Shown: in pieces, positions 8,346 through 47,492 of the stretch
Layout of the letters: each line of letters opens with the position of its first letter
Numbering within the stretch: position 1 is the stretch's first letter
From: Candidatus Bathyarchaeota archaeon
GTDB lineage: Archaea > Thermoproteota > Bathyarchaeia > 40CM-2-53-6
Direction of reading: 5' to 3'
Length of the DNA: 64,000 nucleotides
Assembly (NCBI GenBank): GCA_963726255.1
Contig: CAVSBL010000002.1
Span: 1,312,001-1,376,000 of the forward strand
Notes under the pieces: generated by a model
What the model was told of the DNA's origin: nothing
What the model saw: the letters and a program-made list of their open reading frames with translations, nothing else
Databases searched by the model: none
Program-made: the position numbers and the translations under genes

Positions 8346-8377
8346 GTGCGTGGGGGTCACCTGGTGCGCACACACAC
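8346..8377 (+). repeat. Copy of the dispersed GTGTGTGGGTCAGCTGGTGCGCACACAC palindrome
   Basis: gtgcgtgggggtcacctggtgcgcacacacac, intergenic. Confidence 0.8.
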
Positions 8378-8416
8378 AAAAAGAGAAGGAAAAAAATCGT
8401 TGGAGCGTAGCTTTCG

Positions 8417-8692
8417 TTACCTGTAAGATTCTGCGTCCACCTTCGCCATCGGATACACTCCGTCTACTGGAAGCCCAGGGACTTTAGCGAGAACTTTGCG
8501 GATTGATTCAGCGTCTTTCGCGTCCCACTCGCAAAGTATCTTGGTCGCCTTTCCTTGCTCGTTCAGCTGTATCGTACCACCAATCCAATAGGCGTCCAAG
8601 GTGACATTGGCTTTGGCCATCTTGGCGAACACTCCAGCGTCCGCAATGGTTGCAGGTGACGGCAGCGTATGAGCCACTAGGAACTTTCCCAT
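8417..8692 (-). CDS. Small ferredoxin-like-fold protein (DUF4242-like)
   Basis: KFLVAH...KILCEWDAKDAESIRKVL pattern; strong GAGGAGGTG RBS. Confidence 0.6.
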   Translation of the reverse strand: MGKFLVAHTLPSPATIADAGVFAKMAKANVTLDAYWIGGTIQLNEQGKATKILCEWDAKDAESIRKVLAKVPGLPVDGVYPMAKVDAESYR

Positions 8693-8879
8693 CTCATTTC
8701 ACCTCCTCATGTCATAATCGATTAACTCAGCCAGAAGCAATAGTCACCCTGCAACGTAAAGACTTGACATAACATACGGAATTCTAGGCAGAACGCATGT
8801 CGGTTCGGATGGTGGGGGTGTCTCCTTTTTTGGAGCAAACTATGTTACTTTCCGTCTTCACGTGTGGGCTGCGGGGGGT

Positions 8880-8904
8880 ATTTATTCCTGAATTGGGAAT
8901 AAAT
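8880..8904. promoter_or_regulatory. Perfect 9-bp inverted repeat, putative operator of the wHTH/NTase pair
   Basis: ATTTATTCC-TGAATTG-GGAATAAAT immediately upstream of 8917. Confidence 0.55.
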
Positions 8905-8916
8905 TGGGTGGGGTGA

Positions 8917-9336
8917 TTGGTGGTGCGGATCGAGCTGGCTGCACGGGTTCTCTCGTGTTGCTTGGAGGCGGAGTTGTCTGTGTCGGAGCTGGTGGGGAAG
9001 ATGGGTGGAAGCCACGATAGAACTATGGCGCTTATCAAGGAACTGAAGGCGTGTAGCCTCCTGATGGCCGATACCCGAAGAAAACAAGGGCTGGGTCGAC
9101 CAAGACAGTACCTTCGTGCAACGCCAATTGGTAAACAGTTCGTGAAGGAATACAACCGCCTCAGCGGCCTGCCCCTTCGAAGCAATGAGAACGATGTCAA
9201 GAAGGCCCTACACCAGGCGGAACTGACAAGAAGGCTAGTTGAGAGCGGCATACCGCCGTATGCAAGATTCCAAGAGGTGAACGAACTTGCCCGGAACATC
9301 GCGAGCACTGCGAAAATTAAGCACGGCGCTCGATAA
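8917..9336 (+). CDS. Winged-helix protein (putative antitoxin/regulator)
   Basis: LSVSELV...GRPRQYLRATPIGK wHTH pattern; overlaps the NTase gene. Confidence 0.7.
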   Translation: MVVRIELAARVLSCCLEAELSVSELVGKMGGSHDRTMALIKELKACSLLMADTRRKQGLGRPRQYLRATPIGKQFVKEYNRLSGLPLRSNENDVKKALHQAELTRRLVESGIPPYARFQEVNELARNIASTAKIKHGAR

Positions 9337-9847
9337 CCTCTCCATACCGCACATGCTCATCGGAGGATTCGCCCTAGCAGCGTATGGGCAAATTCGAGCC
9401 ACCCAGGATGTGGATTTGGCTATCGCAGCGAATTACGAGAAGAGCGTTGAACTTCAAGGCAGCCTACGAAAATTGGGTTACCAGCTGGCCCCGGAGCCCC
9501 ACCCTGAGGCACCGCTCTTCTTTCTGACGGACCTTAAGGAAATGTTGGAAGTCGAAATGTGGACGAAACCTGACGGCGTTGTTTTCGATAGGGAAACTCT
9601 ACGCCGGCGTGTGAAAGTGCACCCCTTCGCCGACAGTTTCGAAATGTTCGCAATTGGCCCTGAAGACTTCATTGTAAACAAACTTGCCAGAAAAGACCGG
9701 GGGGTCCAAGATGAGCAGGACGCCGTCTCAGTTCTGGCAATGCAAAAAGGCAAACTCGACTATTCCTACCTTAGGAAGAGAGCGAAGCAAGCAAACGTAA
9801 TCGACCTGCTAGAGACATTAATGCAGACATCAAACACTTACCCATAA
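9287..9847 (+). CDS. Nucleotidyltransferase (DUF6036/AbiEii-like putative toxin)
   Basis: LIGGFALAAYG-IRATQDVDL, PEDFIVNKL...QDEQDA. Confidence 0.8.
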   Translation: MPGTSRALRKLSTALDNLSIPHMLIGGFALAAYGQIRATQDVDLAIAANYEKSVELQGSLRKLGYQLAPEPHPEAPLFFLTDLKEMLEVEMWTKPDGVVFDRETLRRRVKVHPFADSFEMFAIGPEDFIVNKLARKDRGVQDEQDAVSVLAMQKGKLDYSYLRKRAKQANVIDLLETLMQTSNTYP

Positions 9848-10124
9848 TCAACGACTCAACTCACGCCCTATGCGGCCGGGAAACGGGGCTTCGGTGGCAG
9901 TGTGAGCCTTGAGTTGTGGATGGTTTGATTATTCGTTCAGTGCGGGTTTTGGGTGCTGGTTTAGCGTAGACCAGGGGCTGTCGGCTGTGAGTCGCGACTT
10001 TGTCGCGGAGACGGGGTGATTTCGTGGTGACCCGGATGAGCCGCGACGAGCGAATTAATAGGGATGGCTCAGGGTCTCAAGGATGTCACCGAAACGTCAT
10101 GGTTTCGGCCGATATGAACTAGAC

Positions 10125-10502
10125 ATGGGAAGAACAAAATGGAAAACTCATCCGAGCACGCCCACCCGCCGCGTCAGAATATTCCCTTACCTAACGGACT
10201 CGGAGGCAGACGAGTTAGAGCGAGCCGCGCGAGAGAGTGGAGCATGCTCACGGGGCTTAGTGATCACCGAAGCCGTGAAGACCGGCCTCCTAGGCCCCAG
10301 AGTCAAACTTAGCCGGGAGAGAAGGCATAGAAAAATCGGCGTCTGGATCCCACGCCGGACCGCCGCCGAGCTCAAGCAACTCGCCCACGAACACAACCTA
10401 ACACTCACACGCCTCCTGAGACACTTCCTACTCCAATACTTAGCAGAAGCCCCGTGGAGAAACAACCACGACCCGAAGACACAGGAGGCCGCGGCCCCAT
10501 GA
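10125..10502 (+). CDS. Tandem ribbon-helix-helix DNA-binding protein
   Basis: Two RHH-like units (RVRIFPYLTDSEADELERAARE; KIGVWIPRRTAAELKQLAHE); start could be 10083. Confidence 0.6.
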   Translation: MGRTKWKTHPSTPTRRVRIFPYLTDSEADELERAARESGACSRGLVITEAVKTGLLGPRVKLSRERRHRKIGVWIPRRTAAELKQLAHEHNLTLTRLLRHFLLQYLAEAPWRNNHDPKTQEAAAP

Positions 10503-10906
10503 AAATAAAACTCGTTGGAGGCCCACCGGCGAAGGTAGAGAAGCAGGAGCTACTCACCAAGAAAGACGTCCCCGAGTACGAACGAACTAAGAACGCGTTA
10601 GTCAAAGTGCTGGAGAAGGCGGGAGGATACGAACCGGCCATAGACGACATACTCATCGACCAGATCGCCCGAAGCGCAATACAAGCGAAAAACCTGGAAG
10701 TATTCCTCGACTCGAAGCGGTCAACGGTTGACACGTACTCGGTCGTGGCCGACAGCAAATTGAAACTGATGAAGATCATCGAGAACCTAACCCGAGAACT
10801 AGCGCTCAGCCGCCGCGACAGACTAGGCAAGCAAACCCAATCCGACATCATGGAGCAAATCAGCGTAGCCATAGGGGAGGAGGCCCCGAAGCATGGAGAA
10901 CAGTGA
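10499..10906 (+). CDS. Putative terminase small subunit
   Basis: Helical protein with DDILIDQIAR and ELALSRRDRL (P27-type TerS-like); translationally coupled between RHH and TerL. Confidence 0.6.
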   Translation: MKIKLVGGPPAKVEKQELLTKKDVPEYERTKNALVKVLEKAGGYEPAIDDILIDQIARSAIQAKNLEVFLDSKRSTVDTYSVVADSKLKLMKIIENLTRELALSRRDRLGKQTQSDIMEQISVAIGEEAPKHGEQ

Positions 10907-12224
10907 ACGCCTCAAACGGTACGCGCAACTCTACCACAAGACCCTACAGGATCCCGTTGAGTTCGCGAGAACATTCCTACACTTCCAACCCTACCCATAC
11001 CAGGAGAAATTCCTACGTGACAATTCCACGCTTACTGCCGCCTGCTGCGGCCGACAGGTTGGAAAAACAACCCTAGCCGCGATCGTAGCCCTACACTTCG
11101 CCCTCGCAAAGAACCATGTGCGAATTCTAATCGTCAGCGCAGGCTTACGGCAGAGCATAATACTCTTCGACAAAATCCTCGATGACACGGAAACCGCTAT
11201 CCCCGCGAAAGCCCTTTTGACTTACAGGACAAGAACGAAAGTTCGGTTCAGTAACGGATCAGAGATCGTAGCCTTACCCTGCGGAAGGGAAGGGTCGACC
11301 CTACGGGGCCAAACGGCGGATATGGCCATTCTGGACGAGGCAAATTTCATTCCCAGAATTGTCATTGACTCTGTGGTTAGGCCGTGGATGATTACGCGGC
11401 CAGGGGCCAGGCTGATCATGATTTCCACGCCGTGGACGAGGGACCACCCATTCTATGAAGCCCTTAGCAAGCCTGAGCTGGGATTCAAAACCTACAACTG
11501 GCCGAGCGCCATGAACCCGACGGTTACCAAAGAAAAGTTGGAGCTGGAGAGGAGAACCATCGGTGATTTTGCTTTCAACCGTGAATACAACGCCGTATTC
11601 ATGGACGACCAATTCAGCTTCCTGCCCAGCGAGTTGGTGTTAAGCTGCACGGACGGCAGATATGCGCTAAACAACGATCCACTCCAAGCCGAAAAGTACC
11701 GGGGGCAATTCCTGATTGGCATAGATTTCGGGAAGCACGCCGACCATTCCGCAATCGCCATCCTAGAGAAGGTTGGCGATAACCTTCGCCTCGTCTACCT
11801 CATTGAACTGCCGCTGGAGACCCCCTACACCGCGGTAATAGGCACTGTGAGGCGGCTGCACGAGGCGTACGCCTTTGCGGCGGGCTGCCTCGACAAGACG
11901 GGAGTGGGTGAAGGACCCTACGAAGAGATCAAACAATTCATGCGAATTGAAGGCGTCACCCTAACCGCGCAAATAAAGGAAGACATCATGGGCAAACTGA
12001 AACTCACCTTAGAGCAGGGCAGACTCACCCTCCCAAGGGACAACACACAACTCCTAGTCCAGATGACCGAGCAACAATGCGAAACCACCAAGTCCGGGAC
12101 GTTGAAGTTCAACCACCCAGCCGGCACGCATGACGATCAATTGTGGAGCCTCGCACTGGCCATCTACGCATCAACACAACAGCAGACCCGACCGAACTTC
12201 AAGCCAATCACTCGATACTTCTGA
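10893..12224 (+). CDS. Terminase large subunit (ATPase plus RNase H-like nuclease)
   Basis: PYQ motif, Walker A GRQVGKTT, Walker B ILDEA, ISTP, nuclease IGIDFG/DHSA/LDKTG/HDD. Confidence 0.92.
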   Translation: MENSERLKRYAQLYHKTLQDPVEFARTFLHFQPYPYQEKFLRDNSTLTAACCGRQVGKTTLAAIVALHFALAKNHVRILIVSAGLRQSIILFDKILDDTETAIPAKALLTYRTRTKVRFSNGSEIVALPCGREGSTLRGQTADMAILDEANFIPRIVIDSVVRPWMITRPGARLIMISTPWTRDHPFYEALSKPELGFKTYNWPSAMNPTVTKEKLELERRTIGDFAFNREYNAVFMDDQFSFLPSELVLSCTDGRYALNNDPLQAEKYRGQFLIGIDFGKHADHSAIAILEKVGDNLRLVYLIELPLETPYTAVIGTVRRLHEAYAFAAGCLDKTGVGEGPYEEIKQFMRIEGVTLTAQIKEDIMGKLKLTLEQGRLTLPRDNTQLLVQMTEQQCETTKSGTLKFNHPAGTHDDQLWSLALAIYASTQQQTRPNFKPITRYF

Positions 12225-12267
12225 CACCAGCCCAAAAGAACCCGTCGTCACCGCTCACTGAATCTCA

Positions 12268-12558
12268 TTAGTCTTTGTAGATTCCTCGCCTGTGTCCAGC
12301 CGCATGCAGTACGACGGTATGGCTCGCTTCGTTTACAGTGTAGATGATTCTGAAGTCACCTACTCGCAAAGAGTAGAATCCATCCAATTGCCCACGAAGA
12401 TTCTTCCCGACGCGTGGATTGTCTGTTAATAATTCAACAGCCTGAAGTATGCGCTGAATGGTGATTTTGTCCAGTTTGCGCAGAGCTTTCAAGAAGCCTG
12501 GGGTCGATAAAATACTATAGCCTGCCTTCCTTTCGGAGTTCCCTTTTGAGTTGCTCAA
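12268..12558 (-). CDS. relE: RelE/ParE family toxin
   Basis: FLKALRKLD...LRGQLDGFYSLRVGDFRIIY...GHRRGIY. Confidence 0.9.
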   Translation of the reverse strand: MSNSKGNSERKAGYSILSTPGFLKALRKLDKITIQRILQAVELLTDNPRVGKNLRGQLDGFYSLRVGDFRIIYTVNEASHTVVLHAAGHRRGIYKD

Positions 12559-12721
12559 TTGTGTAGAACCTGCCCATTTTCACATCTCTCTGTGACTCTC
12601 TGATGGACTTCATCAACGCCTTATCCCGCAGAACTTCCTCCGTCTCCAATAGTTCGTCGAGGAGATGCCTCGTTTCTAGAAGTAACTTCCTGTCCTGTGT
12701 CGAAAGCAAAGATTTCGCCAA
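12515..12721 (-). CDS. Cognate antitoxin (RelB/Phd C-terminal-like)
   Basis: LLETEEVLRDKALMKSIRESQRDVKMGR; overlaps and precedes the toxin. Confidence 0.8.
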   Translation of the reverse strand: MAKSLLSTQDRKLLLETRHLLDELLETEEVLRDKALMKSIRESQRDVKMGRFYTIEQLKRELRKEGRL

Positions 12722-13035
12722 GCCTTCGTGACCTCACGGCAGTTTGTCAGTATCCCATTATTTAAGGGCAAGTAGCTATGAACCTCAAACGTAGCAAAAC
12801 TAAGTCTTGCGCAATCGGGCCTCGATGTTTCTGACATCAGCCGAGAACCTACGGAGACCACGGAACCCCGCTCTCAAGGCGAATACGACCATATCCAGCT
12901 TCCTTCAGCCCAACGCGATGAAGCGCGCGACCTAGCTCTATGGAGATTTAACTGGCGGGCTTGCTTTCTGTGCGGGTTCGACCGGAAGTGTTAAGCTGAG
13001 CTATGCCACTGCTATAAATCGCATAGGCGTTACTT

Positions 13036-15861: not shown

Positions 15862-15879
15862 GCCGATCCACCTGTTTCT

Positions 15880-16887: not shown

Positions 16888-16896
16888 GTTTGATCA

Positions 16897-28681: not shown

Positions 28682-28706
28682 TGTGTGTGCGTGATTGATA
28701 CACACA
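28682..28706 (-). repeat. Degenerate copy of the dispersed palindrome
   Basis: Minus strand tgtgtgtatcaatcacgcacacaca, just upstream of the 28729 gene. Confidence 0.5.
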
Positions 28707-28728: not shown

Positions 28729-30192
28729 ATGACAGTCAATTACAAGGACTGGGAAACTATTGACAGACATAATCTATCCATTGCGGGGTCCCCCCTTTTC
28801 GATGAAGCAAGTAAAGGTGAGAGGATCAATCCATTAGATCTCTATCCGGAATTCGATATTCAAAAGGAGGAAACGTACACTCAGTGGTTCCCCACTAAAC
28901 TTGCAGAAATATCTCCTGCAAACAATCTTGCCAATCTCGCTCTGCACTATAACAAGGTCATTATTCCGATATTTGGGTACAAGAGTCGAAATGATTTTGA
29001 AGATATTTATGGTATGTCCGTGGAAAATCTTTCGGAGATCTTTGAACGGCGACCGGAGAAATTCTTGCCTGCGGTAACTCAGCATCCATTAGAGTACGAA
29101 GCGTACGGTTATTGTGACAAACTCTTTAATGTAATCCACAAAGTTCGTGGAACTTACCCTCCATTTCTAATTCGAGGTTCGTTCTTTCAAAGAGACTTGA
29201 CTCTCCAGGTCGCGGCCCGTCGTGAAGGGATTATCCAAACTGCTGGTTGGACTGAACTTCTTCTAAGTAAATTTCCTGAGTTAGACGTTGACCAGATACG
29301 AGATATCGAGATTAAACGAATTGCTGACTCCGCACAAATGTACTCAGTAGCAAGAGACCAGAAGTTCGAACTAGCAGATCTAGAGCGAGCCATGGCATCT
29401 ACTGTCTTCGAGTTACGGTCTTTTGGATACGGCACTCTCACGGGGTTCCTGATAGACAAATTTCATAAGGAGTATTCGAACCTTGATCTCCTCTATCACC
29501 TTTTGATCGATTATAGAAAATACCTAATTGACCCGCTTACACAGCAATTGGGTGGCTTTGGCAACTATACTATTGCAGACTTGGAACGCATGGCATTCCT
29601 CAGGGTACTCCCACTTGTCAGTAAGGACTTGAGGAGGTTGGACCAGATCAACTATTCGTTGTTTCTCAACTCCCCTGGCGCTAGAAGCCCTGTTTCTCTC
29701 GGAAGTCACAAAATGGCCGTTTTCCTAAGAGGAGGAGAGGATGTTAACACCTTAAATGACCTTGTAGATTTTGCGGAACGACACAAGAAAGAAACAAGAA
29801 TTATGTCGGAATACCGTCAACTAATCGCTGAAGGAAAGCTTCCTGCTGCTGCTGACGCTTTTAGAAGAGCAGGAGAAGTCTACACACAGATCGGAGAGGA
29901 AGTGAAGCAGCTGGAGAAGGCCCAGAGGAGAGCAAAGTTCGCAACGTATGCCATTAGTGGTGGGGCCACGGTACTCAGCGACGCGGCTCTATACTACAGT
30001 GAAGGGATTCCGCCCGAATGGAAGCTAGTAATAGCCATGTTCAAGGATATTCTGAACTTTCTAGGAATCAAGAACATAGATCCGAAACGAATCGTGGATT
30101 TGATGTATGATGCCAAAGGGTGGCCATGGTACCAGCGTGGTGTACCCTACTTGTTTTGGCGAGGCCCATCTTCGAACCCTGATTATGTTTAG
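28729..30192 (+). CDS. Hypothetical protein (487 aa)
   Basis: Long ORF; coiled coil and amphipathic helices near the C-terminus. Confidence 0.75.
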   Translation: MTVNYKDWETIDRHNLSIAGSPLFDEASKGERINPLDLYPEFDIQKEETYTQWFPTKLAEISPANNLANLALHYNKVIIPIFGYKSRNDFEDIYGMSVENLSEIFERRPEKFLPAVTQHPLEYEAYGYCDKLFNVIHKVRGTYPPFLIRGSFFQRDLTLQVAARREGIIQTAGWTELLLSKFPELDVDQIRDIEIKRIADSAQMYSVARDQKFELADLERAMASTVFELRSFGYGTLTGFLIDKFHKEYSNLDLLYHLLIDYRKYLIDPLTQQLGGFGNYTIADLERMAFLRVLPLVSKDLRRLDQINYSLFLNSPGARSPVSLGSHKMAVFLRGGEDVNTLNDLVDFAERHKKETRIMSEYRQLIAEGKLPAAADAFRRAGEVYTQIGEEVKQLEKAQRRAKFATYAISGGATVLSDAALYYSEGIPPEWKLVIAMFKDILNFLGIKNIDPKRIVDLMYDAKGWPWYQRGVPYLFWRGPSSNPDYV

Positions 30193-30224
30193 TGTGTGGG
30201 GATGCTGGTGCGCACCACCACCAC
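30192..30224 (+). repeat. Copy of the dispersed palindrome overlapping the upstream stop codon
   Basis: gtgtgtggggatgctggtgcgcaccaccaccac. Confidence 0.7.
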
Positions 30225-30470
30225 AAGAAACTGCCGGAACTTACGGTTCAATTTCTGTTGCCCGCACCATTACATCCACCACCACCCACTTTTCAAACGA
30301 CGACCGTTCAACTCTCGATGCGTCAGCTTATCGAAGATTTCAGGAATATGACAAATTGCGCACGCTTGCCTACTAGTTCGTTGGACGTGTTTCTCGAATT
30401 ATTTCGCATTGCCAAATAGTACCATAGCGATAACTACGTGTGTTGTGAGATAAACTTCAGGTCACGAAAC

Positions 30471-31367
30471 ATGAACGATAAGCCCCACATCCACTTTGTC
30501 GACACTACAAGACAGATCGAAGAGCTGTGGAATTGGCTCGGCTACCTGACTTCGCCGGAGAATACAAGAAATCTTCTGCGAAAGAAAATCAGACAAAACA
30601 GCTTCGGAATTGATCATTCCATGCTTGCGCAAAAGAAAAGGGAGGCAAACCAGAAGAGTTCAGGATTCTCTATTGTGCAAGAGGATGTTCTTGAAGAGAA
30701 TGCTCGAAACATTGCAAAATACGTAGCTCAGGCGAGGGAGCTTTTTCAAGTAGCCAGAAGTGTCTCGGAACTAGCCTCTCCTATTCTGTACTATTACGGA
30801 ATGCTGTCCTTGGCAGAGGCTTTGATTTTGTCAATGTATCACTTCAATGATTCTGAGAAGAGTGCTAAAGGATTCTATACGCATGGTCTTAGTATCGATC
30901 GAAATACATACAATAATGTGATTGTCAAACCATACGGAACCTTTCCCCGACTTCATGACTGCTATTCAACGGAGCCAGGGCTGTATCTGGACAAAAGTAG
31001 TTTTTCTCTCAAAGAATTACTGTCGGTCAATCCTGATCTGAGATACCAATATACATTGATATATGGTGAAAAATCCAACATCCAACCCGCTGACGGCCAC
31101 ATTGACGTGGATCTTGAGAAATATGGGATACTACCGGTTAGAGGAATCAAATTGTATCCAATAGATTCAATTTTGATGACCATGTTCATTCTAAGTAGTA
31201 AAGCGAGATACAGGCCCTATGACTGGATTGAAGAAATAACAGTCAAAAAGGAGAGCTTCGTACTTCGGAGTTTCTTGACTCACGCTGAGAGGCGCTATCC
31301 AAACTTAGTTCTCAATAAGATATGGAATGAAGTATTTCTTTTCGGTACCGCCGGGAGATGGGCATAG
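30471..31367 (+). CDS. YaaC-like protein
   Basis: YVAQARELF...SPILYYYGMLSLAEA, HGL, LSSKARYRP.W. Confidence 0.75.
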   Translation: MNDKPHIHFVDTTRQIEELWNWLGYLTSPENTRNLLRKKIRQNSFGIDHSMLAQKKREANQKSSGFSIVQEDVLEENARNIAKYVAQARELFQVARSVSELASPILYYYGMLSLAEALILSMYHFNDSEKSAKGFYTHGLSIDRNTYNNVIVKPYGTFPRLHDCYSTEPGLYLDKSSFSLKELLSVNPDLRYQYTLIYGEKSNIQPADGHIDVDLEKYGILPVRGIKLYPIDSILMTMFILSSKARYRPYDWIEEITVKKESFVLRSFLTHAERRYPNLVLNKIWNEVFLFGTAGRWA

Positions 31368-31477: not shown

Positions 31478-32194
31478 TCATTGGTTGCTTATTACTTTGA
31501 GCTTGATGTCTACTTCTGCTGGTTCTTGGTTCTCGTTCTCGATAATTATGTGCCAGTCGTGCGTCTTGGGAACTGGAAAATCGAATGAAAACCGAGTTAT
31601 TTTCTCGCTGCCTTCTAAATAGTCAAATTCGTGCTCATCTTCGAACAGATTTAGGTTCTGAGTATCAACCAAAAACACGTTGATAGCAGTATCCGAGCTA
31701 ATTCTTCCCCGTAGAATCGACCCTTCGTTCAGCCTGTAAGAAAATGTTTCGTAATCGTCAACAATTTTCCGCACACTCACTAGCTCCTCTTCAGTCAGCG
31801 GTTCTCTTCTCTCCGGCTCTAATTTTTCGGCGATGTAACTAGCAACTTTTTCGCATCCCTGTTTCACATTATTCCTGTCAAACTGCATCCGCTCAATGTC
31901 GCCAAGCATGAATCCGATTCTTGTGTCCTTCTCAACAAAGGGGATAACCGGTATACTTGCTCTTCTTGCATAGCCAACTTCTTGGTTGACTGACGCCGAA
32001 GGATTGCCTCGTGTCACTATTGCTATTAGCGCGTCGGAGTTTTCGATAGCAATTTGTATCTTTTCGAAGAGAGGCTTTCCTAGCTGCGGATCATGCTCAG
32101 CTGTATAGACTTTGATGCCCCTCATCTGAAGACAGGTTTTCATTAGGTTCATGATTTCCCTATCATCAAATGCGTAACTGATGAAAACCTGCAC
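31478..32194 (-). CDS. TIR domain protein with C-terminal beta-sandwich (DUF1883/GOLD-like)
   Basis: VFISY, IENSDALIAIVT, VNQEVGYA, VIPF; C-terminal INVFLVD...FPVPKTHDWHIIIEN. Confidence 0.8.
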   Translation of the reverse strand: MQVFISYAFDDREIMNLMKTCLQMRGIKVYTAEHDPQLGKPLFEKIQIAIENSDALIAIVTRGNPSASVNQEVGYARRASIPVIPFVEKDTRIGFMLGDIERMQFDRNNVKQGCEKVASYIAEKLEPERREPLTEEELVSVRKIVDDYETFSYRLNEGSILRGRISSDTAINVFLVDTQNLNLFEDEHEFDYLEGSEKITRFSFDFPVPKTHDWHIIIENENQEPAEVDIKLKVISNQ

Positions 32195-37798: not shown

Positions 37799-38082
37799 TC
37801 CCTTCGCATTCTACAGGTGAATGATTGACCTTTAACTTGAGGTTCTCAACCCATTCGACGGTAAATTGGAATCTTCCCATGAATTAAGCATCTGTTATAT
37901 TCATTTAAATCAAATTACTGAATCCCCTCGCGTCGCTTTTCTTGTCTACGGTTTTCTAGCAAGATCTGGACGAAAACTTCAGAGGCTTGTCATCGTCACC
38001 GGAGCTCAGTGGATAATACTGTACTTACTAGTGATATGTTTGCAAACATTCGTCGTCTAGTTGAGATTATTAACCTATTCAA

Positions 38083-38111
38083 TGTGTGAGTGCACCATTA
38101 AACCCACACAC
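38083..38111 (-). repeat. Copy of the dispersed palindrome (TAATGG core variant)
   Basis: Minus strand gtgtgtgggtttaatggtgcactcacaca, 23/29 match to consensus; downstream of AbiV. Confidence 0.75.
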
Positions 38112-38125
38112 GAAAACTCTGAACA

Positions 38126-38629
38126 TCAGATTCTCGCACGAATCGAGAACGTTCGTGCCTCTACGTCGTCGAGGAATGTGTCTAAGTGTTCTTTTGCGAA
38201 CAGTGCTCCAAACTTCCAATCTCCTTCTCTAAAATCGACGAAGGTGCAGTCCATTCGCAATTCTTTCGTAGCTTCAACCTCTGGAGCACCCAGGATGAAT
38301 GGCAGTTTTGCACGACCATATACTGATGATTGCAAAAGAACTGAGTCTCCAACAAGGCGCCTAGCTTCATCCATTTTCATCTTATGTGCCTGGCTTCCCC
38401 GAAACAATTGCAGATCTACAGCCGGTTGACTTTTCTCCAGAGTCTGACAGAGCAGGCTCGCCTTTCCCAGTTCTTCTGCAGCATACATTGCCAGCAAAGT
38501 AGCGTGTTCTACGCTGCTGTCATTCAGAAGCAACCTAGCGTCTCGTACGTATCGAGACACATTATCCAAAATCATTTGAATTCCCTCCAACATCGTCTCC
38601 TTCGAGATGAATTGTTTCTTCAAGTGCAA
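38126..38629 (-). CDS. abiV: AbiV-family abortive infection protein (HEPN fold)
   Basis: NV.RYV.DARLL, LAMYAAEELGKA, HKMK, LRMDCTFVD. Confidence 0.8.
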   Translation of the reverse strand: MHLKKQFISKETMLEGIQMILDNVSRYVRDARLLLNDSSVEHATLLAMYAAEELGKASLLCQTLEKSQPAVDLQLFRGSQAHKMKMDEARRLVGDSVLLQSSVYGRAKLPFILGAPEVEATKELRMDCTFVDFREGDWKFGALFAKEHLDTFLDDVEARTFSIRARI

Positions 38630-38690
38630 TCACATCGACTTAGTGGCATTTTGTCGATGATGGCGTGTAGCTGCAAAAAACCTCGACTTG

Positions 38691-38720
38691 GTGTGTGCTG
38701 GTGTAATGGCGCGCAGACGC
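38691..38720 (+). repeat. Degenerate copy of the dispersed palindrome (TAATGG core)
   Basis: gtgtgtgctggtgtaatggcgcgcagacgc, upstream of AbiV. Confidence 0.5.
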
Positions 38721-38752
38721 AAGGAAATCAGCGAAATAGTCTGAATTTCTAA

Positions 38753-38776
38753 CGCTCGCACAATTGATACCACACA
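38753..38776 (-). repeat. Degenerate copy of the dispersed palindrome
   Basis: Minus strand tgtgtggtatcaattgtgcgagcg (compare the 47467 copy ending gtgcgagc); downstream of the 38809 gene. Confidence 0.5.
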
Positions 38777-38808
38777 AAACAAGCATGCTTCGCCATGGGC
38801 ACCGAACA

Positions 38809-40874: not shown

Positions 40875-40903
40875 ATCGCCCTCCGGATGGATATGCGAGA
40901 AAA

Positions 40904-41836: not shown

Positions 41837-41946
41837 TCTGGATCGGTCATTGTATGCGAATTCAGAGATTTTATCATGACTTCAGTCAGTTAGACGCAGG
41901 ACGCCTTACTTCGATTGTACTCTTGAGCCACGTGACCAAGAAGTAT

Positions 41947-43053: not shown

Positions 43054-43141
43054 GCAAACTCTCAGCTAGTACCAATCTTGCACGTTGGGCATCTGTCACT
43101 TTCTTGCATTTGTTTTGCCTCGAAGGGAGATAACAAGTTCG

Positions 43142-43768
43142 CTAATGCCTTTCAGTGGAGGGTTGGTGCTCCCAATTCCTGTTTCTAGGGTTTGAGAATG
43201 AATAGACAATCGTGAAGTCATCCGCGTTCCTAAGGGCTCGTACGTCTTGTTCTAGGTTCCTTGCCTTGTCGAATATCACGACATAGCCACCAAACTCTCT
43301 CTGGACATACCGGCGGATTTTCCGGAACTTCTCAATGTCTTTGCCTATTCTGTTGAGGAATGCTGCATCGGATTCTCTGTTGGATCGCCTCAGCTTTAGT
43401 TCAATGATTGTGAAGAATCCGTCAAATCCATATTGCTTAGAAGGCAATTCGAGGCCAGAGGCTGTCGTGATCAAAGTAGACGCATCTATGAGCACGATAT
43501 CCGACCTGTACCTCATTTTGGTCTCCCTATGGCCGTACCATCGCACTTCAGAATGCAGCTCTATGGAACGACTGTCATCGTGAGTTGCTCTAATGACAGA
43601 GAAACGACTTCCTAACAATTTAGAAAACAAATGGCTTCGGACATCTTCCTCCGTTAGGAAGACATCTGGAAATTCGTTGAATTTGGCTTTCAATTCATTG
43701 ATTGAGTTTTGGATCAATTGTCCTGAAGTTTCAGCTGGCGTTCGTGCTGCAGAAGTACCTTGCTCCAT
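43142..43768 (-). CDS. PD-(D/E)XK nuclease-like protein
   Basis: TEEDVR, HSEV, RSDIVLID, IIELKL, DIEK. Confidence 0.65.
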   Translation of the reverse strand: MEQGTSAARTPAETSGQLIQNSINELKAKFNEFPDVFLTEEDVRSHLFSKLLGSRFSVIRATHDDSRSIELHSEVRWYGHRETKMRYRSDIVLIDASTLITTASGLELPSKQYGFDGFFTIIELKLRRSNRESDAAFLNRIGKDIEKFRKIRRYVQREFGGYVVIFDKARNLEQDVRALRNADDFTIVYSFSNPRNRNWEHQPSTERH

Positions 43769-43988
43769 AACGTGATAATGCTGTCACGTGCTTATCAAAG
43801 AATGCCAAAATGGATATCCAGATTGTTCCAGTGGAAAAATCATTCGTAGGTTTCTCTTGCATGAAGCAAGCCTGCCGCCTCTGCAGGTGAACAGGAAAGC
43901 TAACGACCTCAGAAAACAAACGCATTTCTGAGCATATCGGTCTATCTGAGGCACCAACTTCAGTCAATTATGACTGAATCTGCGACAT

Positions 43989-44756
43989 TTACCGTTCCCG
44001 ATCGTAGTCAGATAGACTTCGGTTAGTGAGTAAGAAGTCGACTTGATTGGTTGAGGCCGCTAATACTTCTTTGGCCTTAGAAAGTAGGAAACGGCATTCA
44101 TCCGAGAAGTGTCCAACATAGACAACAATGTCACGCTTTTCTCGCCAAGTGCGCTTCACAAAGTCGCAAGTTATGAGCCAATTCAAATCACGATCCCAGA
44201 GTTTCTCTCGATAATCAAGAAGAAGGTCAATCAACACCAGCGTGTTTCCTCGTTGCTGGTCTTGTTCCTCTATCTCCATGATGCTTGCGATGAGATTCTC
44301 CAGCCCACTGGAACCAAATTCGACTGCGCAATTCGCCAGCGCCTCTAGCAAATCCCATGTCTCAATAGTGTCCATGGCTTCATAATTCAAGAGCAATCGA
44401 CCAAGTGAAGTTATGCCATAAAGTTTCTTTTCTTTCCCAGATGCCCTCCAGGGCGTTGCCCTGACGACCCTTACAGCTCCTTTGTGGCGCAAAGACTTGA
44501 GTGCGCGAGTGACCTGAGTTCTGTGCAGTTTGCAGACCTTAGCCAACGCATACTCGTGTAGAGGTTCAGGTTCTTCGCCTTCATTTTCTCCGTACAATTT
44601 GCGGAGGATAATCGGCTCAGCGAAATTCTGGTACGGGGCGGGTTTACGCTCGGGAACGTAAGTCCACGAGCGCAAAGGGTCATCAGTCATGATGCGGATC
44701 AATTGTCGAATGCTATCCTCTACGATGCGGCGATCTGTGCCGCTGGGGTATTCCAT
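43989..44756 (-). CDS. Winged-helix DNA-binding protein
   Basis: LHEYALAK...RTQVTRALKSL..KGAV...YGITSLG; ATG at 44756 (MEYPSG) preferred over 44882. Confidence 0.65.
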   Translation of the reverse strand: MEYPSGTDRRIVEDSIRQLIRIMTDDPLRSWTYVPERKPAPYQNFAEPIILRKLYGENEGEEPEPLHEYALAKVCKLHRTQVTRALKSLRHKGAVRVVRATPWRASGKEKKLYGITSLGRLLLNYEAMDTIETWDLLEALANCAVEFGSSGLENLIASIMEIEEQDQQRGNTLVLIDLLLDYREKLWDRDLNWLITCDFVKRTWREKRDIVVYVGHFSDECRFLLSKAKEVLAASTNQVDFLLTNRSLSDYDRER

Positions 44757-44863
44757 ATGACACACTCGAGCCTGGAGAAAAGCCGTGTCATTTGTCATAT
44801 AAGGGTGAAAGGGTGGATTCGATATATGACACGCTGCAGATGCCGGCGCAATGGTGTCATATG
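44754..44863. repeat. Array of ATATGACAC/GTGTCATAT half-sites with 31-bp periodicity
   Basis: Sites start at 44754, 44785, 44792, 44823 and 44854. Confidence 0.7.
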
Positions 44864-44908
44864 GCATAAAACCATGTAACACCTATCATTAGACCAAGGT
44901 CTACGTCT

Positions 44909-45325
44909 GTGATCCAAGAGATCATTGAAACAATAGTCTTCACAATTTCAAACCCAGTTGCCTTGGTCTTGCTCATCGGATTACTGGCGATATCCTTCAA
45001 GTGGAGAGCGAAGGAGCCCAAGATCCTCCTTTTCGGTCTGACCTTGGCTTCAGGACTTTCGTTATGGGTGACCCAGCAACTCTCTGCGGGAACATTGAAT
45101 CCAGCTTGGGCGATCGAGTATTACAAGCTTAGCTTCGGGTGGGCAAATGCGAAAATGGTCAATTTCCTGGGAATCCGACTTCTTGACCTAGCCGGGTTCT
45201 TCGCTGTCGTCGCTCAACTAGTAAAGGATCGGAGAACAGGATTCTTCGGTTTCGTCATGTTTCTTTCAATTCTTTGTGGCATAGTTTGGTTGGCTGCGTT
45301 CTCAGGATACCTATCAATTCGCTAG
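44909..45325 (+). CDS. Hypothetical 4TM membrane protein
   Basis: Hydrophobic segments. Confidence 0.6.
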   Translation: MIQEIIETIVFTISNPVALVLLIGLLAISFKWRAKEPKILLFGLTLASGLSLWVTQQLSAGTLNPAWAIEYYKLSFGWANAKMVNFLGIRLLDLAGFFAVVAQLVKDRRTGFFGFVMFLSILCGIVWLAAFSGYLSIR

Positions 45326-45356
45326 CAAGTTTCGGTGTGCATGAATGGAAGGGTCT

Positions 45357-45384
45357 TGTGGTCAACTGGTGCGCGCACACACAC
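45357..45384 (+). repeat. Copy of the dispersed palindrome
   Basis: tgtggtcaactggtgcgcgcacacacac. Confidence 0.8.
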
Positions 45385-45443
45385 AAAACCACTACGACGT
45401 ACGAACGAGCCGAATCCTTGGCGAATGCCTGACTGGTTTTCCA

Positions 45444-46055
45444 CTAGTGCCCCTTAAAATCATAAACTTCAAGATCGGAGTCGAATGCATACCATTTTTT
45501 TTGGAGGGATGGATCGGTGCTGAGGTCCTGTAGGTATTTCTCAACACCTCGTCTTAGATCCTCTATCAGAGAAAGCAAGTTCAGTTGTAGTACCTGCTTT
45601 CTCCCAGAGCCGGGCACCTGCCAGCTGAAATGCTCCTCTCTAGGCAATTGGTCTGTAGACCAATGCAATAACCACCCGTACTCTGTCCCAGTCTTTGTCC
45701 CTGCTAGCCACCGCGGTTCGCTAGTATGCATTAGTTTGTGTCGCCACACCTGAACTGCCAATTCTGATTCCAGTCTACCGAGACCTAGGTACTTCACCAT
45801 GAACTCGATCATGCGAGGAGTCTGGTTAGAATCGTTTCCTTTCCAGTAGCTCGAGAACAGGTCGACATAGGCAAAACACGTCATCATATAGGCGTATAGT
45901 GTGCGAGAGAAATGTTTGGGGTGGCGCTTCCAGTTGCGCTTTACAATACGTGTGTAGAATAGTCTTGCTTCATACTCAAGATCGTAGATCATCACACGTA
46001 AAACTTTCTTCGCCTTGAAGTATTTCCAATTCCTTCTCATGTGCCGCCCACTCAA
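45444..46055 (-). CDS. HEPN-like protein
   Basis: MTCFAYVDLFS, FMVKYL and RxxxxH motif RHKLMH. Confidence 0.6.
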   Translation of the reverse strand: MSGRHMRRNWKYFKAKKVLRVMIYDLEYEARLFYTRIVKRNWKRHPKHFSRTLYAYMMTCFAYVDLFSSYWKGNDSNQTPRMIEFMVKYLGLGRLESELAVQVWRHKLMHTSEPRWLAGTKTGTEYGWLLHWSTDQLPREEHFSWQVPGSGRKQVLQLNLLSLIEDLRRGVEKYLQDLSTDPSLQKKWYAFDSDLEVYDFKGH

Positions 46056-46091
46056 CTGGTAGCAGCTAGACCGGATGCTGGTCTAAAAGGA

Positions 46092-46121
46092 GGGGGTGGG
46101 TCAGCTGGTGCGCACACACAC
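46092..46121 (+). repeat. Copy of the dispersed palindrome
   Basis: gggggtgggtcagctggtgcgcacacacac. Confidence 0.85.
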
Positions 46122-46259
46122 TGAAAACTACGGAAACATGTCGGCTTCCTTCTCACATTGGTCAAGCGCCCTAGGACCGATGAGTTAACCCTCTAAGACG
46201 GATATCTAATTCTGGCATGAAATAGATACTATAAGCAACCTTTCTATCAAAGGAGGAAC

Positions 46260-46931
46260 ATGCGGTATTCACGTGGATTCAGAAATCTGTTGCGTTTAGC
46301 GCGTACAAAGCGCGCGATAATTGTGATTTCACTCGTCTTGGCCATTATTGAGACAAGCGCTCTGATAACAGTTTTTGATACAGAACCACAGTCCTTTGAT
46401 GCTCCCCCGCAGTTCACATTTTCTGATAAGGTAATCTATGTTTCACCAATAAGGATCGGTACGAATGGTCCGAGTTATTTTCATTCCGTTGCAAGAGTGA
46501 ACGCCTGCTTTTCCTCACCTTATGCCGCTGCTTTCAAAACCTTCGAAGTCGACATGTCACTCGACAATGCAACCTGGACCAGAGTGCCGCTGCTTGGCCC
46601 TCAATCAGACTGTCACATAGAATCTTCAACTCTAGGACTCGTTGATTTGAGTAAATTGACTGTTGTAATTTACGTTAGATACTACATTCCACCACAAACC
46701 GTGCAACTACCAACTGGCGTTACAAAAGAAGTCTTTCTGAAGAGCGTGAATGGAACGATAATGATTCACAGAGAAGCTTCTCCGAAGGATCAAGTCGCAA
46801 CATTTCTAGTGTGCGTGGCTCTGTTGGGCTTGAATTTGGCAGTAGCTAACCATATTTCTCCGTCGAGAGGAAAAACAGGAACCGACCTGAACGACGGCTC
46901 TCCGGGGTACATCAAGATTAGTTGTCTTTGA
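46260..46931 (+). CDS. Hypothetical protein, 2 TM helices flanking a beta-rich extracellular domain
   Basis: N- and C-terminal hydrophobic helices; AGGAGG RBS. Confidence 0.65.
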   Translation: MRYSRGFRNLLRLARTKRAIIVISLVLAIIETSALITVFDTEPQSFDAPPQFTFSDKVIYVSPIRIGTNGPSYFHSVARVNACFSSPYAAAFKTFEVDMSLDNATWTRVPLLGPQSDCHIESSTLGLVDLSKLTVVIYVRYYIPPQTVQLPTGVTKEVFLKSVNGTIMIHREASPKDQVATFLVCVALLGLNLAVANHISPSRGKTGTDLNDGSPGYIKISCL

Positions 46932-46960
46932 GCGTCAGAGGAGGTGACCGTCGTTCGTAT

Positions 46961-46990
46961 GTGTGTAGGTCAGCTGGTGCGCACACACAC
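46961..46990 (+). repeat. Copy of the dispersed palindrome
   Basis: gtgtgtaggtcagctggtgcgcacacacac. Confidence 0.85.
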
Positions 46991-47059
46991 TCAACAAAGC
47001 GCCCCCAATGACTTTAAGACCCATTCGATCGGAGAGGAGATAACCGCAGGTGCATTAGT

Positions 47060-47461
47060 TTGGATTTTCGTTTCGTCTACACCGGTATACGAGTGAAGAA
47101 TATGGAGGAATCTCTGAAGTTCTACACCGAGGTGCTAGGTATGGTAATCGCGGAGCCTCTTGAAAGCATGGGACCAACAAAGGGCAGCGCCGTCACACTC
47201 AAGAGTCGGGAATCGGAACAAATCTTAGAACTCAACCACTACGAAGACGATAGTCCATTCTGTTCAACATACGTAAACGGCGAAGAGCTTGACCACATAG
47301 CATTCGACGTCCACGACCTGACGGCCACAGTTGAAGAACTCAAACGAAAATCTGTTGAAGTATTGGTGGAACCGGGAGCGATCGGGGGAGTGATCGGATG
47401 GAAAGAAGCCTACGTCAAAGACCCAAACGGCATATGGATAGAACTCCTAGAACGAAAGTAG
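47060..47461 (+). CDS. VOC/glyoxalase family protein
   Basis: IRVKNMEESLKFY, LELNH, DHIAF, KDPNGIWIEL. Confidence 0.88.
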   Translation: MDFRFVYTGIRVKNMEESLKFYTEVLGMVIAEPLESMGPTKGSAVTLKSRESEQILELNHYEDDSPFCSTYVNGEELDHIAFDVHDLTATVEELKRKSVEVLVEPGAIGGVIGWKEAYVKDPNGIWIELLERK

Positions 47462-47466
47462 TCTAA

Positions 47467-47492
47467 GTGTGTGTGGGTCAGCTGGTGCGAGC
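47467..47492 (+). repeat. Copy of the dispersed palindrome (right arm degenerate)
   Basis: gtgtgtgtgggtcagctggtgcgagc. Confidence 0.8.

Follow-up and report, generated by a model that had tools for sequence, protein, structure and literature searches.

What is the motif of about 28 bp that recurs between the accessory genes of the 64,000-nt stretch of Bathyarchaeota-labelled archaeal DNA analysed here (the window)? A sequence-only reading had suggested that it delimits cassettes of accessory genes and is a site of recombination, and both suggestions agree with the data below, in the second case as a site of integration. At a probability of roughly 0.75, we read the motif as the junction left where casposon-like transposons of a lineage-specific family have inserted; that the copies are junctions at all is likely. 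With successive insertions into a 14-base target derived from a tRNA end, the archaeon's accessory islands have the look of transposed gene cassettes stacked one on another.

A 32-nt weight matrix finds 95 copies of the motif in the 2.4-Mb genome at a score of at least 16, and none in the main contig as simulated by a third-order Markov model. At a score of at least 10 there are 129 real matches versus 14 in the simulated control, so that the weak window copy at 38748, taken alone, is uncertain. When up to 3 mismatches are allowed, the 21-nt core has 4 matches in the window, 0.00 being expected from 100 shuffles. The genome copies fall into 27 clusters with a median spacing between junctions of 878 bp, and most of the segments between junctions are short and often hold a single gene. 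By home-made, crude gene calls, which make up 86% of the contig, 82 of the 95 copies lie outside genes; those of the window are intergenic, as had been stated, and two weak matches within ORFs (33739 and 51890) may be due to chance. The nuo, suf, opp and hdr-like genes of the window, whose identities are confirmed by Pfam, are indeed without a copy. Nine of the ten window copies originally listed are recovered at a score of at least 10 (Table 1) and the tenth, at 28682, scores below it, while a good copy at 30254(−), scoring 25.8, had been missed. A terminase-like ORF is also present in the window.

The constant part of the repeat is the 14-mer GGTCnnnTGGTGCG. Information content peaks in TGGTGCG and GGGTC, with variation only in the three middle bases, and is lowest in the arms, which reverses the earlier description of conserved arms around a variable centre; GTGTGTG and CACACAC arms occur together in only 12 of the 95 copies. 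The repeat is not a true palindrome, and instead of the 11-6-11 parse first proposed the data fit an arm/14-mer/arm arrangement. The copies belong to the junction classes x-T-CA (23), GT-T-leader (18), GT-T-x (17) and GT-T-CA (12), the rest having neither arm recognised (16) or other combinations (9).

The target itself resembles the end of a tRNA. The complement of the 14-mer is CGCACCA plus 7 nt, i.e., a tRNA 3′ end with its trailer: in target orientation, CGCA-CCA-nnnnnCC reads as acceptor end, discriminator A, CCA and then a trailer of about 7 nt, and the reverse complement of TGGTGCG with the sequence downstream gives T-loop, acceptor, A and CCA. Genuine tRNA genes in the genome end ..CCCCGCACCA. 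Intact targets have, on their upstream side, a tRNA-like “leader” that includes a T-loop-like GGTTCAAAT; the arrays are not enriched beside bona fide tRNA genes (4/30 vs. 2.1 expected).

Table 1. Junctions and cassettes of the window, with weight-matrix (PWM) scores and grade of match.
Feature	Position	Strand	PWM	Description
Junction	8346..8377	+	36.1 (clear)	Non-element flank, 14-mer 8355-8368 GGTCACCTGGTGCG, (CA)n element end
Cassette	8369..8801	−		91-aa SCO4226-like gene 8417-8692 (minus), Pfam match
Junction	30190..30221	+	30.6 (clear)	GT-type end, 14-mer 30199-30212, (CAC)n-type end
Nested target	30222..30285	−	25.8 (30254-30285)	(CAC)n end, tRNA-like leader with T-loop-like GGTTCAATTTC..TGCC, second 14-mer 30263-30276 (minus), (GTG)n arm
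Junction	38082..38113	−	30.4 (clear)	Degenerate 14-mer 38091-38104
Cassette	38105..38699	−		AbiV/HEPN-type gene 38126-38629 (minus), Pfam PF18728, E=1.3e-14; CACACAC..GTGTGTG ends, two similar flanking 14-mers inverted
Junction	38691..38722	+	25.9 (moderate)	Degenerate 14-mer 38700-38713
Decayed copy	38748..38779	−	11.5 (weak)	tRNA-like tail
Distal junction of four-copy array	45351..45382	+	28.5 (clear)	14-mer 45360-45373 GGTCAACTGGTGCG, one mismatch vs. the next three of the array; (CA)n end
Segment	45374..46098	−		198-aa ORF 45444-46040 (minus), no Pfam family matched; left end CA-type, right end not GT-type
Junction	46090..46121	+	36.5 (clear)	Exact 21-mer match; 14-mer 46099-46112 GGTCAGCTGGTGCG, (CA)n end
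Cassette	46113..46967	+		213-aa ORF 46290-46931; left end CACACAC.., right end GTGTGTA; identical direct 14-mers (pair 1358090/1358959, Hamming distance 0, both ends element-type)
“Palindromic” junction	46959..46990	+	37.5 (clear)	Exact 21-mer; GT end, 14-mer 46968-46981, CA end
Leader-proximal cassette	46982..47475	+		Glyoxalase-family gene 47060-47461, Pfam PF00903, E=4e-18; CACACACAC..GTGTGTGTG ends, identical direct 14-mers either side
Array proximal end	47467..47520	+	38.7 (clear)	GT end, 14-mer 47476-47489, tRNA-like leader (reverse complement of ..GGTTCAGGTTTGCTTGCT-CGCACCA)

Two of the window cassettes recur in unrelated contexts in other genomes, with their arms kept and their 14-mers differing. 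The segment with the 91-aa gene, whose right-hand end appears truncated in this genome, is 82–88% identical in G015 (L023) and G007 (L024), where it lies beside other 14-mer variants, and the homology covers the CACACAC arm and ends at the 14-mer; the junction on its left is kept at the orthologous site in G033 (L022 3945-3976). The glyoxalase cassette has a copy, 78% identical, in G013 (L001 4042-4516), where other 14-mer variants flank it and its orientation with respect to them is reversed; homology stops at the arm/14-mer boundary. In one orthologous array, which has 330 bp here and 2,113 bp with 4 junctions in G015, the cassette content differs, and homology picks up again exactly at the 14-mer plus leader.

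The enzyme tied to the motif in relatives is a Cas1-family casposase and not the tyrosine recombinase that had been expected. Of 23 genomes of the genus, 12 have solo Cas1 genes (PF01867), with up to 11 matches per genome in ORFs of about 400–440 aa, and motif copies are present in 10 of the 11 Cas1 loci fetched, none of which contains a CRISPR-like array. The exception is L030, where no copy of the motif occurs within 18 kb and whose Cas1 is about 40% identical to the others. The Cas1 of L028 matches PDB entry 6opm (E=6.9e-71, residues 9–404), among the matches listed the only chain annotated as a 431-aa Cas1 and presumably the M. mazei casposase of PMC6977970; its best match to a CRISPR Cas1 is at 3e-25.

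Two Cas1 elements are complete, both with identical direct 14-mers outside, inverted simple-repeat ends and a tRNA-like leader alongside: L028 9165-17761 (leader, CGCACCACTATACC, CACACACAC..Cas1..GTGTGTGTG, CGCACCACTATACC) and L036 6601-13735 (leader, CGCACCAGCTGACC, (CCG)n..Cas1..(CGG)n, CGCACCAGCTGACC). The geometry is that of a transposon, with inverted ends and a 14-bp target-site duplication, and the tyrosine-recombinase geometry is not supported. A family-B polymerase is absent from both, which are thus not canonical casposons, and an HNH gene was not found in either.

In this genome, neither a family search nor tblastn with four relatives' proteins (best E=0.38) finds a Cas1, so the enzyme would act in trans, a point on which the sequence-only reading was right. 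Cas1 was likewise not found in the motif-rich G011, G013 and G017, or in G028 with its 18 motif matches. The motif is present in 10/13 and 8/8 sampled genomes of two genera, in 0/22 from two further genera of their family, and almost nowhere else among 301 genomes of the class.

In the casposon-like reading, the arms would be the termini of inserted DNA, one terminus reading CACACAC... and the other ...GTGTGTG, or more rarely (CAC)n or (CCG)n. By analogy with the M. mazei enzyme, which is characterised, a Cas1-family casposase would catalyse insertion at the 14-mer target, joining the element's two 3′ ends to target strands 14 bp apart, and gap repair would then duplicate the 14-mer; the leader is probably required. 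Since every insertion would restore leader plus target, and CA-type ends would bring an internal leader-plus-target-like copy, insertions could stack and nest as target, cassette, target, cassette. At 30222..30285 a target is nested inside an element end. Each junction would consist of an element end, the duplicated target and the next element end, a “palindromic” copy arising where one insert's right end and its neighbour's left end meet at a shared 14-mer. The casposase-less segments here would be non-autonomous cassettes, mobilised in trans by casposases like those of the relatives; on whether the small cassettes are independently mobile, we lean slightly toward yes.

Identical adjacent 14-mers account for 4/52 pairs in this genome versus 1.2% of distant pairs (permutation p=0.0045), and in relatives for 5/23 same-orientation pairs versus 2.5% of different-locus pairs; leader-proximal pairs are identical in 6/19 cases versus 3/37 elsewhere (Fisher p=0.049, with pairs that are not independent). 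Most adjacent 14-mers differ (mean Hamming distance 3.83 vs. 3.96 for distant pairs, p=0.29), and opposite-orientation pairs make up 21/52 here and 20/43 in relatives. Identical 14-mers occur in 3/20 opposite-orientation pairs of relatives, and the Cas1 elements of L026 and L031 have similar but inverted 14-mers on both sides. Opposite-orientation neighbours are not predicted by a simple duplication model, and many inverted or non-identical neighbouring 14-mers, those of the AbiV cassette included, are unaccounted for by the model proposed here.

Such neighbours favour another explanation, in which the junctions are casposon-derived and the short segments are decayed full-length elements, shuffled by homologous recombination between their repeated ends. 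The casposase is gone from this genome, as decay would have it, and both ends are element-type in only 16/52 adjacent segments (240–2198 bp, 0–2 ORFs), the end types agreeing in 15 of these 16. Moreover, modules with an internal 14-mer and both flanks conserved recur across genomes and look like larger pieces moved or inherited. However, single-gene leader-proximal segments (476–837 bp here, 593 bp in G015) combine matched CA/GT ends with perfectly identical direct 14-mers, which is how fresh insertions should look, and one and the same cassette stands beside different 14-mer variants in different genomes. We consider decay with shuffling possible, though unlikely.

Far less can be said for an integron-, Xer/dif- or pdif-like system with a tyrosine recombinase that would act in trans on 11-6-11 palindromes downstream of cassette genes. 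Cassette-like arrays are present, and such enzymes occur in 19/23 genus genomes, but by eye their listed coordinates show no association with the motif, and PF00589 is not matched in a six-frame search of this genome. The palindromic sites are a small minority, conserved in the centre rather than the arms, and the complete elements have direct 14-bp repeats and inverted ends around a Cas1 gene. Nor is there an orientation rule: the flanking gene ends that face copies genome-wide comprise 86 3′ and 78 5′ ends, hence no gene-orientation bias, and the earlier claim that copies follow stop codons in the gene's own orientation does not extend to the genome. It is just as improbable that the copies are att-site remnants (duplicated tRNA 3′ ends, attL/attR) of tRNA-targeting integrative elements or proviruses. 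The tRNA 3′-end-like sequence at 18–22 of the 95 copies and the terminase-like ORF would suit them, yet only 14 bp are shared, the “tRNA” parts have T-stems that do not pair, spacing is typically below 1 kb, an integrase was not found in this genome, and integrase att sites have neither an association with Cas1 nor inverted simple-repeat ends. A host-function element (REP/RAYT-type repeat, bidirectional terminator hairpin or operator for an accessory-gene regulator) would explain dispersed intergenic copies, some able to form a 7–9 bp stem with a 14-nt loop, but is hardly credible where no Y1/RAYT transposase was found, one or both arms are missing in 83/95 copies, no promoter-side or terminator-side bias is seen, the spread is patchy at genus level, and the core operons of the window lack copies.

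The casposon-like arrays share features with several known systems. Like integrons (IntI/attC), they hold mostly single-gene accessory or defence cassettes with a recurring recombination site between them, and the enzyme need not be encoded by the cassettes on which it acts; unlike integrons, their orientation is mixed, the site consists of element ends and a duplicated target of 14 bp rather than a folded attC, and neither a tyrosine recombinase in this genome nor an attI/Pc platform was found. Like CRISPR arrays, they involve a Cas1-family integrase and a leader beside the preferred target, which every insertion duplicates, building up a repeat-insert-repeat array whose freshest (identical) repeats tend to be leader-proximal. 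The repeats, however, are 14 bp long versus 24–47 bp in CRISPR, the inserts, of 0.25–9 kb, bring inverted ends and genes of their own, no CRISPR-like array was found at the Cas1 loci, and nothing points to an RNA-guided function. As in Tn7-type islands, a comparison already drawn for casposons in the available excerpts of PMC4779613, repeated insertion at a specific site gives islands of partly inactivated elements, although transposase chemistry and target are unrelated and there are many dispersed target copies here versus one attTn7.

The closest likeness is to family-2 casposons (the MetMaz elements, 6opm), whose integrase is also of the Cas1 family with a C-terminal extension. The excerpts available of the published accounts (PMC4779613, PMC6977970) describe, for M. 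mazei casposons, 14-bp duplications with a conserved 5′-CGCA that is the last 4 bp of tRNA-Leu. Insertion there is reported to go in either orientation and to require the duplication segment together with 30 bp of the tRNA upstream; elements in tandem arrays have one copy of the duplication in common, and solo TIRs are left behind. So far as those excerpts go, the elements here agree in their 14-bp duplication starting CGCA over a tRNA 3′ end, in the upstream tRNA sequence as leader, and in either-orientation insertion, tandem elements with one common duplication copy, and solo ends. They differ in their host, a Bathyarchaeota-labelled lineage rather than Methanosarcina mazei, in having neither a family-B polymerase nor an HNH gene found in the two complete elements, in very short termini of simple-repeat sequence, (CA)n, (CAC)n or (CCG)n, and in a duplicated segment that includes an encoded CCA. 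Lacking PolB and forming cassettes, they depart from known casposons: where family-2 casposons number one to a few large elements, there are here about 95 junctions per genome, bounding mostly sub-kilobase and often single-gene segments.

The copies that a sequence-only reading had listed in the window are real: a 32-nt weight matrix built on genome hits recovers, at a score of at least 10, nine of its ten positions, 28682 being the exception, and a good copy at 30254(-) had been overlooked. In the whole assembly (2.42 Mb, 51% G+C, five contigs) the matrix finds 95 copies at a score of at least 16, against none in a third-order Markov simulation of the main contig at the same threshold, and the 21-nt core GGTCAGCTGGTGCGCACACAC, allowing up to three mismatches, has four matches in the window where shuffles give an expectation of 0.00. 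The consensus first proposed had the wrong spacing and, as an exact 28-mer with an 8-N centre, has no match. The copies form 27 clusters, with a median neighbour spacing of 878 bp and a second copy within 5 kb for 79 of the 95, and 82 lie outside gene calls (home-made, and covering 86% of the contig). Pfam upholds the observation that none sits in the nuo, suf, opp or hdr operons: nuo, suf, opp-type and hdr/hydrogenase-type genes fall in motif-free parts of the window, and the motif-bearing part holds AbiV/HEPN, TIR-domain, YaaC-like, subtilase, glyoxalase and MFS genes.

The conserved part of the motif is its centre. Column information peaks at TGGTGCG and GGGTC and is least in the GT/CA arms, and TGGTGCG is followed by one of three continuations: CACACAC, sequence resembling GGCAACCAAATTTGAACCGTCGTCG, or unrelated DNA. 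Read on the other strand, the second of these is a tRNA 3' end, with a T-loop-like GGTTCAAAT, an acceptor strand, A and CCA, followed by CTAGACC and CACACAC; bona fide tRNA genes of this genome end in ..CCCCGCACCA. Writing T for the central 14-mer, GT and CA for the two kinds of arm, "leader" for the tRNA-like arm and x for unrelated DNA, the 95 copies divide into x-T-CA (23), GT-T-leader (18), GT-T-x (17), neither arm (16), GT-T-CA (12) and others (9). The palindrome that had been taken for the general form is thus confined to the 12 GT-T-CA copies. The placement of copies behind stop codons, in the orientation of the gene, does not hold genome-wide either, since the gene ends that face them are 86 3' and 78 5' ends. 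A promoter or terminator reading was rejected on the same lack of orientation bias relative to genes.

Recurrent segments show where the units begin and end. In a relative (G013), the glyoxalase segment of the window has different motif copies on either side, to which its orientation is reversed, and the homology runs through ..GTCTAAGTGTGTGTG and ends at the start of the 14-mer. The segment with the 91-aa gene is also found in two other genomes (G015, locus L023, and G007, locus L024) in unrelated contexts; here the homology takes in GCGCACACACACAAA..., and the adjoining 14-mers differ (GGTCACC.. in the window, GGTCTAA.. in G015, GGTAGGC.. in G007). An internal duplicate pair in the studied genome has the same pattern. 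Because the recurrent homology keeps the arms while the 14-mers differ, the 14-mer lies between units, and the mobile or exchangeable unit is CACACAC-gene-GTGTGTG. No gene family dominates among the genes next to the copies (all-versus-all BLAST of 162 neighbouring genes), the nearest to a motif-linked family being KaiC/RecA-like paralogues, assigned by eye, of whose 13 members 7 lie close to a copy.

Coordinates of features in the window (G000:C2:1312001-1376000), on the main contig (C2) of the studied genome (G000) and in loci (L) fetched from other genomes (G)
Feature	Location	Strand	Details
Segment with 91-aa gene	window 8367-8801		
Large terminase subunit ORF	window 10893-12224	+	Terminase_6N, E = 8.8e-14; Terminase_6C, E = 7.9e-7
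YaaC-like gene among junctions	window 30471-31367		defence-type
TIR-domain + DUF1883 gene among junctions	window 31478-32194		defence-type
AbiV/HEPN gene among junctions	window 38126-38629		defence-type
Two adjacent segments	window 46113-46967 and 46982-47475		identical direct 14-mers and CA/GT ends; leader from 47490 onward
Glyoxalase segment	window 47002-47475		78% identical to G013 L001 4042-4516
Site at a tRNA 3' end	G000:C2:198091-198118	-	degenerate partner 2.3 kb off, at 195765
~360-bp module	L023 1836-2197; G000:C2:485563-485924		94% identity
Extra 635 bp in the closest relative	L022 (G033:C109) 4426-5061		small ORFs; 14 nt at window 8801/8814
AIPR abortive-infection gene	L027 9657-11345		inside a relative's Cas1 element
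Complete Cas1 element, 8.6 kb	L028		leader ..GTTCAAATCTGGATGCC, CGCACCACTATACC, CACACACAC...GTGTGTGTG (terminal inverted repeats), CGCACCACTATACC, then CA-end of the next element
Complete Cas1 element, 7.1 kb	L036		leader, CGCACCAGCTGACC, (CCG)n...(CGG)n (terminal inverted repeats), CGCACCAGCTGACC
Polymerase hit with Cas1 fragment 11 kb away	G018:C4 956660-957331, 968191-968889		PF03175, protein-primed type, E = 1.9e-14
Divergent Cas1 locus (L030)	G018:C4:540000-558000		~40% identity to the other Cas1 proteins; 18 kb without a motif copy

Two further features of the window are of note. The terminase ORF, a few kb from the first junction, may be a provirus remnant. The 14 nt at 8801/8814, which correspond to the extra 635 bp of the closest relative, read GGTTCGGATGGTGG and loosely resemble the 14-mer; as an inserted element the 635-bp segment was rejected, having no recognisable ends and no duplication.

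Short inverted ends, a 14-nt spacer and a tRNA end together pointed to casposons. According to published descriptions, family-2 casposons of M. mazei duplicate 14 bp, the initial CGCA of which is formed by the final 4 bp of tRNA-Leu; for integration to be efficient and site-specific, 30 bp of upstream tRNA must accompany the duplicated segment; both orientations are found, tandem elements have one duplication copy in common, and solo TIRs adjoin CGCA (PMC4779613, PMC6977970). At the level of sequence the target described here likewise reads as a tRNA 3' end: the 14-mer begins CGCA-CCA, since this lineage encodes the CCA, and 18–22 of the 95 copies have a T-loop-like leader upstream. Casposon insertion at leader plus 14-mer would account for three junction classes, in that leader-T-CA would be the left junction of an insertion, GT-T-x the right junction, and GT-T-CA the boundary of two stacked elements. 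Within CA-type ends there is a further leader-plus-target-like copy, and such copies would offer nested targets in both orientations. By analogy, we infer that the mechanism would be that of a family-2 casposon.

The enzyme is found in relatives. Cas1 (PF01867) is absent from the studied genome, and tblastn with four of the relatives' Cas1 proteins finds no remnant there, so its copies, being without a casposase, can only be non-autonomous or relict. Within the genus, 12 of 23 genomes have Cas1, with up to 11 hits each and typical ORFs of 400–440 aa, and ten of the eleven Cas1 loci fetched contain motif copies. The Cas1 ORFs of the relatives' elements (404–410 aa) match PF01867 at E ≈ 1e-52, and that of L028 matches PDB 6opm, which we take to be the M. 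mazei casposase, over its whole length including the C-terminal region (E = 6.9e-71, against 3e-25 for the best CRISPR Cas1). Two complete elements could be delimited (L028 and L036), each with terminal inverted repeats; in a third locus, L026, the inverted repeat is 27 nt long and 89% complementary. Neither PF00136 nor PF03175 has a hit on the contigs that hold the two complete elements, and Pfam scans of the element ORFs show none. The single protein-primed-type polymerase hit near a Cas1 fragment in the genomes looked at is on contig C4 of G018, and this pair could represent a different, polymerase-bearing type of casposon. The divergent Cas1 of the same contig (L030) may belong to a second casposase lineage with another target.

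Family-2 casposons are expected to leave a target-site duplication of fixed length, 14–15 bp. Perfect 14-bp direct repeats surround the two complete Cas1 elements and several small cassettes, and the two adjacent window segments ending at 46967 and 47475 are textbook cases of the duplication model. Of the 52 pairs of adjacent 14-mers in the studied genome, 4 are identical, each with both members in the same orientation; for distant pairs the proportion is 1.2% (permutation p = 0.0045). On average, adjacent 14-mers are no closer in sequence than distant ones (mean distance 3.83 vs 3.96, p = 0.29). Among the loci of relatives, identity is seen in 5 of 23 pairs with the same orientation, where pairs from different loci give 2.5%, and also in 3 of 20 pairs with opposite orientation. 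When a pair ends at a leader it is identical in 6 of 19 cases, against 3 of 37 for the rest, a count (p = 0.049) in which pairs are not independent and the leader pattern failed to recognise the window's own leader-proximal pair. Element-type ends occur on both sides of 16 of the 52 adjacent segments (240–2198 bp, 0–2 ORFs), and the end types match in 15. The expectation that gene gain and loss would map to the motif is borne out in part, by one orthologous array, which has a TBP gene on one side and a conserved flank on the other: it measures 330 bp in the studied genome and 2,113 bp in G015, where it has four junctions and where homology resumes at the 14-mer and leader.

Most neighbouring 14-mers, nevertheless, are dissimilar or inverted, with opposite orientation in 21 of the 52 neighbour pairs. 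Inverted, similar 14-mers flank the Cas1 segments of L026 and L031 and the AbiV cassette of the window; possible origins are the flipping of a 14-nt segment between inverted arms, insertion into inverted internal targets of element ends, or attack on a separate target by each element end. Several motif-rich genomes have no Cas1, and across genomes motif number shows no clear correlation with Cas1 presence. Arrays show no enrichment next to bona fide tRNA genes (4 of 30, 2.1 expected). At one site, 198091-198118, TAATACTCC and CACACAGG come after the 3' end of a bona fide tRNA with a paired T stem (..CCCCGCACCA), possibly as the result of an old insertion there.

A MITE-like element, one of the alternatives that the sequence-only reading had offered, fits in part, since MITEs also have terminal inverted repeats, a duplication and no transposase. 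MITEs are, however, short, non-coding and present in many near-identical copies, whereas the segments here differ in the genes that they hold and are not mutual copies; self-BLAST of the genome finds few long multi-copy repeats that bear the motif. A ~360-bp module with an internal 14-mer and leader, in which both flanks are conserved, recurs in many genomes of the genus in several copies each and behaves as a larger repeated unit. The integron analogy fails as to the type of site: attC sites are imperfect palindromes with R/L boxes, lying in one orientation downstream of cassette ORFs, whereas the motif is palindromic in 12 of 95 copies and has neither such an orientation rule nor a bias to 3' gene ends. 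Integrons also rely on the tyrosine recombinase IntI with an adjacent attI and promoter, and the six-frame translation of the studied genome (98.5% complete) has no match to PF00589 at E ≤ 0.01. No Xer-type enzyme is therefore detectable in it, although 19 of 23 genus genomes have 1–12 matches each. The proposed Xer/dif or pdif site is contradicted by the motif itself as well, for those modules have two conserved ~11-bp arms around a variable 6–8-bp spacer and XerC/D-type enzymes, whereas here it is the centre that is conserved, and the arms vary or are missing. REP elements mobilised by TnpA-REP can be set aside, as a search for the HUH Y1 transposase (PF01797, RAYT) found no match in the genome. 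Ends of IS200/IS605 or TnpB elements were rejected on the lack of a Y1 transposase and the distance of the two TnpB genes from any copy.

The motif is patchily distributed. With at most one mismatch it occurs in 17 of 18 genomes sampled from the genus and in 2 of 12 others of the order (reversed-pattern control, 0–1). Among 301 genomes of the class, the exact form is present in 10 of 13 of this genus, 8 of 8 of a sister genus and none of 22 from two other genera of the family, with a handful of single hits elsewhere; a viral contig collection scanned with a 24-nt form gave no hits. ARAGORN finds 7 tRNA genes in the studied genome without introns and 35 when introns are allowed (18 with the Rfam model), so that most are interrupted; this, together with TBP paralogues recognised by eye from their sequences, identifies the organism as an archaeon. 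Contigs C1, C3 and C5 duplicate 10–12 kb stretches of the main contig at 98–99.8% identity, which is probably assembly redundancy and is consistent with the contamination estimate of 9%.

The CRISPR adaptation module is proposed to descend from casposons, and to our knowledge those known so far occur as a few large, polymerase-encoding elements per genome. In this lineage, polymerase-less Cas1 elements have their ends and a 14-bp tRNA-derived target in common with about 100 junctions per genome, most of which border small gene cassettes stacked by a leader. Our literature search (published supplements on TIRs and duplications lay outside it) found no description of casposons in Bathyarchaeota or of non-autonomous or miniature casposons, and the terms "Bathyarchae", "non-autonomous" and "MITE" are absent from passages of a 2023 review. 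Within those sources, junctions in such abundance, cassettes of under 1 kb, termini made of simple repeats, Cas1 elements without a polymerase and this host lineage thus appear to be new. The motif is in any case a simple marker of island boundaries for annotating these genomes. If the cassettes are mobilised in trans, casposases would drive the flux of accessory and defence genes in an abundant group of uncultured archaea, a Cas1 integrase would have produced natural repeat-insert-repeat arrays without CRISPR, and the end, target and leader sequences would be testable substrates for casposase biochemistry.

Finally, the arrays may be set against two known systems. The family-2 casposon as published has a resident family-B polymerase and its casposase inside the element, whereas the L028 and L036 elements have no polymerase and the copies of the studied genome no casposase at all. 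A CRISPR array has regular repeats of 24–47 bp, spacers of 26–72 bp and Cas1-Cas2, and a crude 24-mer test finds no such repeat series in the studied genome or the eleven Cas1 loci. We give a chance of roughly one in three to the reading that the Cas1 casposase acts as a platform for gene capture, in which any DNA with short (CA)n-type ends would be inserted beside a tRNA-like leader with duplication of a 14-bp repeat each time, building leader-polarised arrays of defence and other accessory cassettes that persist after loss of the enzyme; such arrays would be a functional analogue of the integron and, in structure, a living intermediate between casposon and CRISPR array.
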